This document shows positions 36,031 to 38,250 of a DNA stretch of 64,000 nucleotides, piece by piece. The DNA lies in assembly GCA_963833575.1 (NCBI GenBank), contig CAWHXY010000004.1, positions 128,001 to 192,000 on the forward strand. The letters run 5' to 3'. The position numbers were made by a program, and so were the translations under genes. The notes beneath the pieces are model-generated. The model was not told the DNA's origin and searched no databases. It worked only from the letters and a program-made list of their open reading frames with translations. Numbering within the stretch: the stretch's first letter is position 1; the number at the start of each line of letters is the position of its first letter. The DNA is from Candidatus Bathyarchaeota archaeon (GTDB lineage Archaea > Thermoproteota > Bathyarchaeia > Bathyarchaeales > Bathycorpusculaceae).

Positions 36031-36516
36031 ATGTCTTTCATGAATAAAAAAGAGAGCTCAATAGTTATCCAGCAAGTTGATGAAGAAATATTTGATGATT
36101 TTTTAGGCTTAATTGACAAGCTTGCAGAATATGAAAAGCTGGCTCCACCCAACGAAGAAGCAAGAAGAAGACTACGAATAGACTGTCTATCTGATAAACC
36201 CAAATATCAAGCATTCATTGGGAAAATAGGAAACAAAAGCATATCATACGCAATTTATTTCTTCACTTATTCGAGTTTTCTTGCCTTGCCAACATTGTAT
36301 CTTGAAGATATTTTTGTTCTTGAAGATTATAGAAGGCAAGGGGTTGGCCAGAGAATGTTCGACTACTTAAAAGCAATAGCAAAGCTCGAAGGATGTGGCA
36401 GAATAGAATTTACTGTTTTGAAATGGAACAAGTCCGCGCAAGAGTTTTATGAAAAAAACAAAGCCAAACGACTAGAATGGTTCTTGTATCGGTTAGTCAA
36501 GGAAGATTTTGGCTAA
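36031..36516 (+). CDS. GNAT N-acetyltransferase (diamine/spermidine acetyltransferase-like)
   Basis: LAEYEKL, YSSF....LYLEDIFV...YRRQGVG, VLKWN..A..FY. Confidence 0.85.
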   Translation: MSFMNKKESSIVIQQVDEEIFDDFLGLIDKLAEYEKLAPPNEEARRRLRIDCLSDKPKYQAFIGKIGNKSISYAIYFFTYSSFLALPTLYLEDIFVLEDYRRQGVGQRMFDYLKAIAKLEGCGRIEFTVLKWNKSAQEFYEKNKAKRLEWFLYRLVKEDFG

Positions 36517-36561
36517 CATATTCTCAAAAAGCAAATGTTATATTTGACGTGTATGGGGGTG

Positions 36562-36789
36562 TCAAGATTCTTTTTGGTCTGGTACAACTTTGACTGTAAC
36601 GTTTGGCCCTTTTATTCCAGTTAGTGGTGGCAGAATATGAGAAATAAATTGTTCTGCGGTACATGGGCGAACTATTCCGTTGCTGTTGTATTCTTTCCAG
36701 CAGTCTTTTTCTTTTCTAAACTTCTGTAGCCATCTATCGTGGAACATTATGTAGATTGTGCATTCGGAATTTTTCATGATAATTTTCAT
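36562..36789 (-). CDS. Small hypothetical protein
   Basis: ORF of about 75 aa from ATG 36789 with G.VR.CTAEQF.SH.LPPL.G. Confidence 0.55.
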   Translation of the reverse strand: MKIIMKNSECTIYIMFHDRWLQKFRKEKDCWKEYNSNGIVRPCTAEQFISHILPPLTGIKGPNVTVKVVPDQKES

Positions 36790-36899
36790 GCAGGCGTAAT
36801 TATTAAAATCTGATGCCAAAAAAGGGTTAAAAAAGGAAGCATAGTCTCATCTTTCATAACTGGTAAACATCAGGAGAGATTACAAGAAATGACTTTTGG

Positions 36900-36920
36900 T
36901 TAAAAAAGAAAAAAGAGAGT
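36900..36920 (-). terminator. Oligo-T terminator downstream of the Lys-rich micro-ORF
   Basis: Minus strand reads ACTCTCTTTTTTCTTTTTTAA about 25 nt after the stop. Confidence 0.5.
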
Positions 36921-36942
36921 AAATATGCCTTTGGCCGAGATT

Positions 36943-37005
36943 TTACTTTTTCTTTGCTGGGGCTTTCTTAACTTCTTTCTTAGCTGGTTTCTTCGCCACT
37001 GTCAT
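36943..37005 (-). CDS. Lys/Ala/Pro-rich micro-protein MTVAKKPAKKEVKKAPAKKK (histone H1-tail-like), divergent from the histone gene
   Basis: ATG 37005 (or GTG 36999) to TAA 36945-36943; TATA TTATATATA at 37047-37039, GAGGG upstream of the start, U-tract downstream; 9 of 20 residues are Lys, two PAKK units. Confidence 0.7.
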   Translation of the reverse strand: MTVAKKPAKKEVKKAPAKKK

Positions 37006-37038
37006 GACCCTCGGGATTTCATATATGTAAGTACTTTG

Positions 37039-37056
37039 TATATATAATTTACTTAA
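37039..37056 (-). promoter_or_regulatory. BRE-TATA promoter of the micro-ORF
   Basis: Minus strand TAAGTAAA-TTATATATA, ending about 35 nt upstream of the ATG. Confidence 0.55.
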
Positions 37057-37127
37057 ATTACAGAGGAAAAAGATAACAAAGCTTAATATTGCCTTAAAAA
37101 ATTAAAGAGGCTGTAGAGGAAGACGAT

Positions 37128-37349
37128 ATGAAGGAAATAGAAATACCGGTGGCTCCAATGCACAGATTGTGTAAGAAAGCTGGAGCAGAAAGAGTAAGTG
37201 AAGCAGCAGCTCATGAGCTTGCAAAAGTTCTCGACGAAATTGGCACCAAGATTGCAAAAGAAGCATTTGACTATGCGATGTATGCTGGAAGAAAAACTAT
37301 TAAAACAAAAGACATAGAAATCGCGACTAGAAAAATCATAAAAAAATAG
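37128..37349 (+). CDS. Archaeal histone (HMf family) with Tyr at the His49-equivalent position
   Basis: IPVAPMHRLCKKAGAERVSE.A...LA...EA..YA.YAGRKTIK..DIE.A; SD GAGGA. Confidence 0.95.
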   Translation: MKEIEIPVAPMHRLCKKAGAERVSEAAAHELAKVLDEIGTKIAKEAFDYAMYAGRKTIKTKDIEIATRKIIKK

Positions 37350-37503
37350 CAATCTAGGACATAAGCACATAATGCTTTTCAATTTATTTTTCATTGATTC
37401 CGGAAAAAACTGAAGCCAAAACGAATGACTTGATAAACAAGTAATAAGTTGCGGAAGACTTAAGGACTCATTTCTGTTTACACAAAATAAGGCAGGGTTT
37501 TGC

Positions 37504-37743
37504 ATGGTTCATAGAAGAGTGCGAGGCGGACACTACAAGATTAAACACGTTGACAAGCCATGCCCCGTCGAGTTGGGAAACGAATTATTAGTGAACATCA
37601 CTGACATATGTCCAAATGGCGATGGAATGACAAAAATTCAGGGCTATATAATAATGGTGCCAAAAGCCAAGCCAAGAGATTGCGTAAAAATTAAAGTGAT
37701 ACAAGTCGGCGAAAAAGCTGCAATTGGCGAAATAATCATATAA
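37504..37743 (+). CDS. Single TRAM-domain protein (putative RNA chaperone)
   Basis: PVE.G....V.I.D....GDG..KI.GY.I.VP.A...D.VKIKV..VG...A.GE. Confidence 0.85.
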   Translation: MVHRRVRGGHYKIKHVDKPCPVELGNELLVNITDICPNGDGMTKIQGYIIMVPKAKPRDCVKIKVIQVGEKAAIGEIII

Positions 37744-37902: not shown

Positions 37903-38250
37903 ATGATTTACAAAAAAGAAAATGCGGTTAACATTGAGAAAAATGGCGTAAGAATGAGGATATACAACGGAAGGGAACAGTGTCCTCAAGCTGCAGTAGC
38001 TTATCAGGAAACCGAAACTGGCCATTGCGAGGAATTTCTGCATAAAAAAAGCTTCTTTATCTTCTACATCATTGAGGGCAAGGGAACGTGGTTTATTGAG
38101 GATAAACAGTATGATGTTGAGGAAGGAGACTCAATTATTATTCCGCCTAATACAAGGTTTTATTATAAAGGGAACTTGAAGCAGGTGTGTGTGACTTCGC
38201 CTGCATGGGAACCAGAACACGAGCAACATACAAGAGACATGCGCTTCTAA
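37903..38250 (+). CDS. Cupin-domain protein
   Basis: H.EEF.H, FYIIEG.G, GD..IIPP. Confidence 0.8.
   Translation: MIYKKENAVNIEKNGVRMRIYNGREQCPQAAVAYQETETGHCEEFLHKKSFFIFYIIEGKGTWFIEDKQYDVEEGDSIIIPPNTRFYYKGNLKQVCVTSPAWEPEHEQHTRDMRF

Follow-up and report, generated by a model that had tools for sequence, protein, structure and literature searches.

A conserved lysine-rich micro-gene, apparently protein-coding, stands back to back with variant histone genes in Bathyarchaeia

We analysed a very short open reading frame (ORF) in a 64,000-nucleotide (nt) stretch of DNA from a soil archaeon of Candidatus Bathyarchaeota (contig CAWHXY010000004.1, positions 128,001 to 192,000; hereafter the window, with its own numbering from 1), together with its counterparts in related genomes. 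The ORF lies on the minus strand, opposite to a neighbouring gene for a tail-less archaeal histone, and specifies an 18-amino-acid (aa) peptide, MAKKPAKKEVKKAPAKKK, with 9 Lys, 4 Ala, 2 Pro, 1 Glu and a net charge of about +8. From the comparison of related sequences we regard it as settled that the micro-gene is coding and conserved, that it has expression signals of its own and that it is linked to histone genes. It is probably the gene of a real small protein that binds DNA or RNA. Our preferred reading, held tentatively and with a probability of roughly 45%, is that in this genus the product is a nucleic-acid-binding polycation with a role in chromatin.

A preliminary description of this DNA, made from the letters alone, had pointed out a 20-aa lysine-rich ORF carrying two PAKK units, furnished with a full expression unit and running head to head with the histone gene. 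This ORF is indeed present: positions 37005 to 36943 of the minus strand read MTVAKKPAKKEVKKAPAKKK followed by a stop codon, with 9 Lys, 1 Glu and the two PAKK units. As for its start, the ATG at 37005 was rejected, since it occurs in only 2 of 12 aligned loci (the window copy and its closest relative, L005) and stands only 3 nt from the GAGG motif, as against 9 nt between GAGG and the GTG at 36999. In the same 12-locus alignment, the next in-frame codon after the ATG site is GTG or ATG everywhere, and the codon at 36999 is GTG in 19 and ATG in 15 of 34 loci. Most relatives have 7 nt between GAGGT and the start codon. We conclude from these alignments that GTG 36999, which the preliminary description had offered as the alternative start of an 18-aa form, is the conserved one.

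Firstly, the pattern of substitutions is that of a protein-coding sequence. A BLAST search with positions 36500 to 37360 against 24 genomes drawn from the genus matched 36899..37050 with 78-86% identity in 10 of them, and an eleventh gave a weaker, shorter match (36940..36996, 79%). Codon statistics were established over 34 distinct loci with the 18-aa form, where the mean entropy at codon positions 1, 2 and 3 is 0.06, 0.20 and 0.44. The differences among these loci are 91 synonymous versus 40 non-synonymous. All the non-synonymous differences fall at residues 6, 9, 10 and 15 (A/V/E/T), and every Lys and Pro position is invariant. Codon 2 encodes Ala throughout, written as GCG in 9 loci, GCA in 10, GCT in 7 and GCC in 8; the stop codon is TAA in 34 of 34; and the indels of the micro-ORF, found in L025 and L026, are 3 nt long and in frame. 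Judged by these patterns, the ORF is a genuine micro-gene that stands alone, and purifying selection acts on its amino-acid sequence. An antisense ORF (36925..37047, plus strand, 40 aa, hydrophobic) that shares its codon register with the micro-ORF was rejected, because variation in it would peak at the first codon position and conservation at the third, opposite to the coding expectation; sense codon 2 would read R/G/C/S in that frame.

Secondly, the micro-ORF is far beyond chance. In the whole 2.75-Mb genome to which the window belongs (G000, of 8 contigs), a content of at least 40% Lys is reached by 30 of 85,664 ORFs of 12-30 aa, among which the micro-ORF, present in a single copy, is the only one of Lys/Ala/Pro type. 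A pattern describing its N-terminus matched 41 of 401 genomes of the order, against 4 matches in total for the reversed control pattern. By genus, these matches came from 31 of 88 genomes of g1, 6 of 23 of g21 and 2 of 5 of g31, with 1 of 192 genomes matching across 87 other genera. The distinct matches are 17-23-aa ORFs ending in KKK in 42 of 47 cases, the remaining five being L028, L029, L032, L042 and the contig-cut L030. Comparable Lys/Ala/Pro micro-ORFs were absent from 13 histone loci that lack the micro-gene. Diverged members such as MAKDKSPKKEEKKQPAKKK (19 aa; L196 and L197 of genome G280) and MPAKKPAKKETKPAQKKK (18 aa; L027 of genome G020) evade the strict pattern, and the pattern-based prevalence is hence a lower bound.

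The third-position substitutions, the four-fold codon 2 with its invariant Ala, the exchange of GTG and ATG at the start, the in-frame indels and the fixed stop make it very improbable that the stretch is no gene at all, but a non-coding small RNA or a purine-rich sequence serving the histone as promoter or regulatory element, open in one frame by chance. The stretch does lie in the upstream region of the histone, is A/G-rich and of low complexity and has no entry in the protein collections, and conservation in its 3' untranslated region (UTR) is roughly as strong as in the ORF, the first 40 nt of the 3' flank having a mean entropy of 0.90, against 1.81 further out. The same gene, on the other hand, is found away from histones.

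Thirdly, the full expression unit claimed for the micro-gene is present and conserved. We aligned the flanks of 48 sequences (41 of genus type plus 7, L064-L070), in which the TATA box, the Shine-Dalgarno site and the T-tract are invariant or nearly so: no variation is seen at TATA positions T1, T4, A5, A7, T8 and A9, nor at C34, G36, A37, G38 and G39 of the Shine-Dalgarno region. By its position and sequence, TTATATATA is a putative archaeal TATA box. The 3' end of the 16S ribosomal RNA (rRNA), located with the small-subunit (SSU) model of Rfam, is GGATCACCTCCT, which makes GAGG(T) a plausible Shine-Dalgarno site. Similarity among relatives stops directly past the T-tract, a candidate transcription terminator by analogy with archaeal oligo-T termination. 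The Shine-Dalgarno region may in addition be engaged in base pairing. The motif CCUCGG just past the stop codon is kept in 41 of 41 genus-type sequences, and the 7 sequences without this 3' element carry CUCG abutting the GTG start instead, a complement of the Shine-Dalgarno site being present in 48 of 48. This arrangement, which shows no covariation within either type and one phylogenetic switch between them, suggests Shine-Dalgarno sequestration or 5'/3' pairing. An Rfam scan at gathering thresholds and a transfer RNA (tRNA) scan gave no matches in the window. The coordinates of these elements and of the neighbouring genes are given in Table 1.

Table 1. The micro-gene, its putative signals and its neighbours in the window.
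Feature	Position	Strand	Remarks
Micro-protein coding sequence	36943..36999	-	GTG start 36999, TAA stop 36945..36943; product MAKKPAKKEVKKAPAKKK
Additional in-frame codons ATG ACA of the 20-aa version	37000..37005	-	Probably 5' UTR; ATG in the window copy and L005 only
Putative TATA box TTATATATA	37047..37039	-	39 nt upstream of the GTG start; TTATAAATA in relatives
Shine-Dalgarno region CCCGAGGG (GAGG)	37015..37008	-	Also 5' half of the possible 5'/3' pairing
3' UTR element (U)CUCGGCC	36933..36940	-	Directly after the stop; complementary to CCGAG of the Shine-Dalgarno region
Candidate oligo-T terminator CTCTCTTTTTTCTTTTTT	~36919..36902	-	Conserved; assigned from archaeal oligo-T termination
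Histone promoter and 5' UTR	37062..37127	+	Conserved upstream of histone paralogues in relatives' loci
Putative TATA-like element cttaatatt of the histone upstream stretch	near 37082-37090	+	
Candidate element GAGG of the histone upstream stretch	37116-37119	+	
Tail-less archaeal histone, 73 aa, variant paralogue	37128..37349	+	PF00808, E-value 3.1e-13; divergent from the micro-gene
GNAT acetyltransferase	36031..36516		
TRAM-domain protein	37504..37743		
Cupin	37903..38250		

The head-to-head arrangement with the histone holds, the start codons of the two genes being separated by 128 base pairs (bp), and it recurs across the genus. We carried out a linkage census with a sequence-only covariance model in 120 genomes of the genus, which located the micro-gene (type 1) at 52 high-scoring places in 45 genomes, 51 of them at 99 bits or more and one cut by a contig end. 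Two loci at contig ends could not be assessed; among the other 50, a histone gene lies within 500 bp in 46. The histone is divergent at 125-143 bp in 33 loci and at 259-451 bp in 9, and lies upstream on the same strand at 95-370 bp in 4; one more locus has a divergent histone at about 760 bp. One genome carries four micro-gene/histone pairs. Once the histone ORFs are disregarded, no flank is common to the 52 loci, which form 21 flank-sharing groups: the pair of micro-gene and histone is the only conserved unit in the genus. Type-1-like copies divergent from a histone also occur in two other genera (L071, at 241 bp; L227, at 214 bp). The GNAT enzyme, once proposed as a possible modifier of the peptide, finds no support in synteny, since it is adjacent in 1 of the 52 loci, the window's own; the TRAM-domain gene is adjacent in 2. 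The 85-aa ORF that separates the micro-gene from the GNAT gene in the window (36562-36819, minus strand) has no Pfam match. At other, unlinked loci, 8 relatives have stretches with 77-83% identity to its DNA, and the ORF is possibly a small gene of a conserved or mobile kind.

By tree and alignment, the linked histones are fast-evolving divergent variants, not the canonical paralogue. In a tree of 53 distinct histones (73 columns, with many weakly supported forks), 10 of 10 unlinked histones sit in one tight canonical clade with near-zero branches, and 31 closely linked histones fall outside this clade on long branches. The histone of the window is placed with these long-branch members. The label linked or unlinked changes twice on this tree, and 0 of 500 shuffles gave a number as low. 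Among 48 distinct histones that were aligned, the HAGRKT motif has Tyr at its His position in 15 of 28 closely linked members versus 0 of 10 unlinked ones, which have His in 9 cases and Gln in 1 (QTGRKT); other closely linked variants of the motif are HARRKT, HSGRKT and YAKRKT. We take this His to lie in the dimer-dimer interface of HMfB. A separate observation concerns a histone paralogue of G000, the genome of the window (L002, 1481..1981, minus strand; contig C8 near 160.7 kb), which has a 93-aa in-frame N-terminal extension with PTEMKKLE-type repeats and ends in GKLFFDYY at its C-terminus. The same combination of PTEMKKLE extension and FFDYY, with a varying number of repeats, is seen in five database proteins (P0001, P0002, P0004, P0007 and P0011), one of which is this G000 paralogue itself, and the extended paralogue is likely a genuine tailed histone.

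From these features we infer that the micro-gene is translated in vivo and co-regulated with the histone, and that its product binds nucleic acid and has chromatin as its target, along the following lines. The TATA element would act as a strong archaeal promoter and give rise to a leadered mRNA of about 100-120 nt, on which ribosomes would start at GTG 36999 after GAGG, and transcription would end at the oligo-T tract. The product would be an abundant, unstructured polycation of 18 residues and about +8, binding polyanions by charge. Neither a hydrophobic segment nor a signal peptide is present in it, so it would be expected to stay in the cytoplasm. Selection maintains its Lys and Pro positions together with its total charge. 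Because composition and not sequence is conserved across genera, non-specific electrostatic binding is favoured over a fitted site on a protein or on rRNA, and the binding mode would be akin to that of oligolysine, of a polyamine or of the C-terminal domain of histone H1. The back-to-back pairing with fast-evolving variants is the only conserved unit, which makes histone-bound DNA the most likely local target; there the peptide would neutralise charge and compact chromatin built from tail-less histones. A bolder version, which we find rather doubtful, is that Bathyarchaeia possess free, diffusible 'histone tails': an oligolysine micro-protein, expressed from a bidirectional promoter region that it shares with fast-evolving histone variants lacking tails, would serve in trans as a minimal linker or tail and compact or tune hypernucleosomes. 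In this version, 15-23-aa 'peptide polyamines' would more broadly form an overlooked class of nucleoid-condensing factors in archaea and bacteria, each recruited beside a protein that associates with DNA and has no tail, for instance a histone or one of the Dps/ferritin-like type.

A series of observations weighs against the chromatin reading. The linkage may be passive, as two genes with a gap of 125 bp would stay together when their surroundings are rearranged, even with no functional tie between them, and the same-strand arrangements could stem from local inversion. Three loci of the genus lack a histone within 1.5 kb. Presence is patchy, type 1 being confined to the 45 genomes counted above, with 0-4 copies per genome. 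Thirteen homologues of at least 129 aa, of which 10 were read, yielded no histone with a KKPAKK-type tail attached, the range of 40-128 aa not having been searched. A peptide of +8 would, moreover, bind rRNA and tRNA as readily as DNA. Finally, the window micro-gene is one branch of a family-wide Lys-rich set whose commonest neighbour is not a histone, and this set has look-alikes in bacteria; both are described below. As to origin, the fission of a KKPAKK-tailed histone was rejected on the same reading of the longer homologues.

With the sequence-only model, some member of the wider family is found in 97 of the 120 genus genomes and, across the Bathyarchaeia family, in 70 of 151 genomes and 33 of 55 genera, figures that the strict filters make lower bounds. 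These micro-genes encode 15-23-aa Lys-rich peptides, which from genus to genus keep their composition and not their sequence (for example MAKAAKGKKKKGGKKK versus MAKKPVKKEEKKAPAKKK; also MPKAAKKPKKKAAKKK). In other genera, the micro-gene stands 100-190 nt upstream of a same-strand double-ferritin-like gene (about 326 aa; PF00210 in two stretches, E-value 3.6e-37) in 13 of 20 sampled loci. The ferritin-like gene lies downstream in 7 of 7 loci L064-L070 (genera g21/g31), in none of which a histone was found within 1.5 kb. The loci with this neighbour are L064-L070 and L228-L236 (for example L068, 1780-2757). At least one of them (L068) has the S component of an ECF transporter upstream, and the ferritin-like gene of G000 (contig C7, 671084-672061) has no micro-gene upstream.

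Within the genus, a second tier of full-length matches at 30-47 bits occurs mostly once per genome. Twenty weaker matches (30-61 bits) were fetched, of which 18 encode a 16-aa type 2 paralogue, M[AP]K[AT][AP]KK..KK.KKKK, and 2 a 19-aa intermediate. Type 2 (L191-L195 and L198-L210; for example L193, at about 2046-2096) is absent from G000 and from the window, and shares the layout of promoter, Shine-Dalgarno site and T-tract with type 1. In 16 of the 20 loci it stands 206-258 nt upstream of a pair of genes of about 305 and 272 aa, which is pyrD-pyrK in the one locus scanned with Pfam (PF01180, E-value 1.9e-74; PF10418) and was recognised by ORF size in the others. The pairing with a histone put forward in the preliminary description persists in the genus, where the partner is a divergent variant, and elsewhere in the family a ferritin-like gene or pyrD-pyrK mostly takes its place. 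Homologues unlinked to histones, which that description had named in advance as telling against it, make up part of the family.

These same-strand neighbours bear on another explanation, in which the micro-gene is a translation-dependent cis-regulatory leader: translation of its run of Lys codons, which a sequestered Shine-Dalgarno site precedes and an oligo-T terminator follows, would set the read-through or the mRNA fate of the neighbour, and the peptide would be a by-product. The position upstream of the ferritin-like gene in most genera and that of type 2 upstream of pyrD-pyrK are as such a leader would have them, and the Shine-Dalgarno complement is always there, in the 3' UTR of 41 sequences and next to the start in 7. 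However, each copy ends in its own T-tract, and a TATA-like element of its own precedes pyrD in the 10 loci read and the ferritin-like gene in the one locus read. In the window nothing is conserved downstream, the similarity of relatives ending at the terminator, and the histone-linked copies are divergent from the histone instead of upstream of it. The downstream genes are unrelated to lysine, and it is the identity of Lys and Pro that is conserved, beyond purine content. A co-directional upstream ORF with no intervening promoter, as in leaders and attenuators, was found neither in the window nor in the relatives examined. We consider this explanation quite improbable.

Look-alikes of the micro-gene exist outside the archaea. 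A motif scan (N-terminal motif plus KKK-stop) over about 186,000 species genomes returned at least 119 stretches, whose shared ends and short length are imposed by the pattern. Among the matches listed are Bathyarchaeota and a large set from Cytophagales/Cyclobacteriaceae/Ohtaekwangia encoding MAKKPAKKAAKKAKKAAKKKK (21 aa), as well as smaller sets with shorter peptides in Acidobacteriota, Omnitrophica and Lentisphaerae; the loci concerned are L072-L190 (for example L124, 2343-2405, minus strand). The MAKKPAKKAAKKAKKAAKKKK set shows 111 synonymous versus 11 non-synonymous differences over 57 contexts, a conservation that the search pattern does not impose. The gene has a perfect hairpin terminator in one locus read and, in most of 25 loci listed, is found some 145 nt downstream of a murB-like gene of about 340 aa. 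Because the peptides are of low complexity, homology between the archaeal and bacterial forms cannot be judged. We know of no use of histones in the bacterial groups concerned (Cytophagales, Acidobacteriota). Taken with the wider archaeal family, these analogues show that histones are not required.

The family being widespread and mostly away from histones, and having analogous genes in bacteria, is also what one would see if the product were a tiny basic peptide associated with the ribosome or with RNA, similar to eL41, bS22 or Thx, or an RNA counter-ion or chaperone, with the histone neighbourhood an inherited accident of the 125-bp gap. The micro-gene is tiny and its product very basic, and it has a strong promoter and a Shine-Dalgarno site. 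In the accessible text of one paper, H1-like proteins that lack a globular domain can be found in association with the nucleolus and ribosomal proteins as well (PMC9769792), and bS22 and bL38 are described, in the source text available, as overlooked until structures were solved. Yet a copy number of 0-4 and the patchy occurrence of type 1 are unlike those of a core single-copy gene, and the variation of sequence between genera is unlike that of proteins fitting a defined rRNA pocket. The neighbours examined included no gene recognisable as that of a ribosomal protein, although no systematic survey of neighbours was made, and the 20-aa form has no ribosomal match in Pfam or NCBIfam, whose models are weak at such a length. 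On balance we regard a ribosomal or RNA role of this kind as unlikely, and retain the chromatin role as the preferred reading for the genus.

The micro-gene appears to be new. Neither the 20-aa form of the window nor the bacterial 21-aa form has a match in Pfam or NCBIfam, searches with little power at such a length, or an exact match among about 15 billion proteins. In the literature, including the accessible portions of PMC6136690 and PMC13260811, we found no description of a stand-alone Lys-rich peptide gene beside archaeal histones. Micro-proteins no longer than 23 aa, forming a family in 33 of the 55 sampled genera with look-alikes in bacteria, represent conserved coding capacity below the cut-offs of gene callers. 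Archaeal histones are mostly tail-less, and the origin of tails and of linker histones is an open question, for which a conserved gene for a tail-like peptide alone, beside histone variants, would be a concrete and cheap test case.

Several known systems resemble the peptide in part. The C-terminal PAKKA repeats of HupB/Hlp, the chlamydial Hc1/Hc2 and AlgP condense DNA by Lys/Ala/Pro repeats. The repeat chemistry is the same as in the peptide, but these repeats are joined to a folded domain or run over tens to hundreds of residues, whereas the peptide is the repeat alone, of 18 aa. The tiny basic ribosomal proteins eL41, bS22, bL37, Thx and bL38 are likewise very short and strongly basic, and gene callers miss them as well; they are Arg-rich or mixed in composition, conserved in sequence and encoded by single-copy core genes. 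In contrast, the peptide family is patchy and varies in copy number (0-4 copies of type 1, in 45 of 120 genus genomes), and its sequence is not conserved across genera (MAKAAKGKKKKGGKKK versus MAKKPVKKEEKKAPAKKK).

Closer likenesses are found among histone tails and linker histones. In the accessible text of PMC6136690, the tailed archaeal histones of Heimdallarchaeota LC_3 (HA), Huberarchaea and Bathyarchaeota B23 carry Lys-bearing N-terminal tails proposed to contact the DNA of the hypernucleosome. These tails and the peptide are both basic and Lys-bearing and come from the same phylum (PMC6136690). Archaeal tails are, however, contiguous with the histone fold and covalently part of the histone, whereas the peptide comes from a separate gene on the opposite strand, and the tailed histone of G000 is of PTEMKKLE type, not KKPAKK. 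The 18-aa peptide has the Lys/Ala/Pro-rich, low-complexity basic composition of H1-like proteins that consist of the C-terminal domain only. With the kinetoplastid, dinoflagellate and Toxoplasma (TgH1-like) proteins, as far as the accessible text of PMC9769792 describes them, it shares this low complexity, PAKK-type units, the lack of a globular domain and a stand-alone product. It is too short to hold the winged-helix globular domain of canonical H1 (PF00538), for which the 20-aa form gave no Pfam match at E-values up to 10. The expected electrostatic compaction of DNA or chromatin is common to both, predicted for the peptide; the H1-like proteins are eukaryotic, and their binding to chromatin is shown by experiment (PMC9769792, accessible text). 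At 18 aa, the archaeal peptide is several times shorter than TgH1-like, which has 91 aa (PMC9769792), and the low complexity of both means that homology cannot be shown. In the text available of the two papers, the nearest known things are thus the H1-like proteins without a globular domain (PMC9769792) and the fused tails of archaeal histones (PMC6136690).

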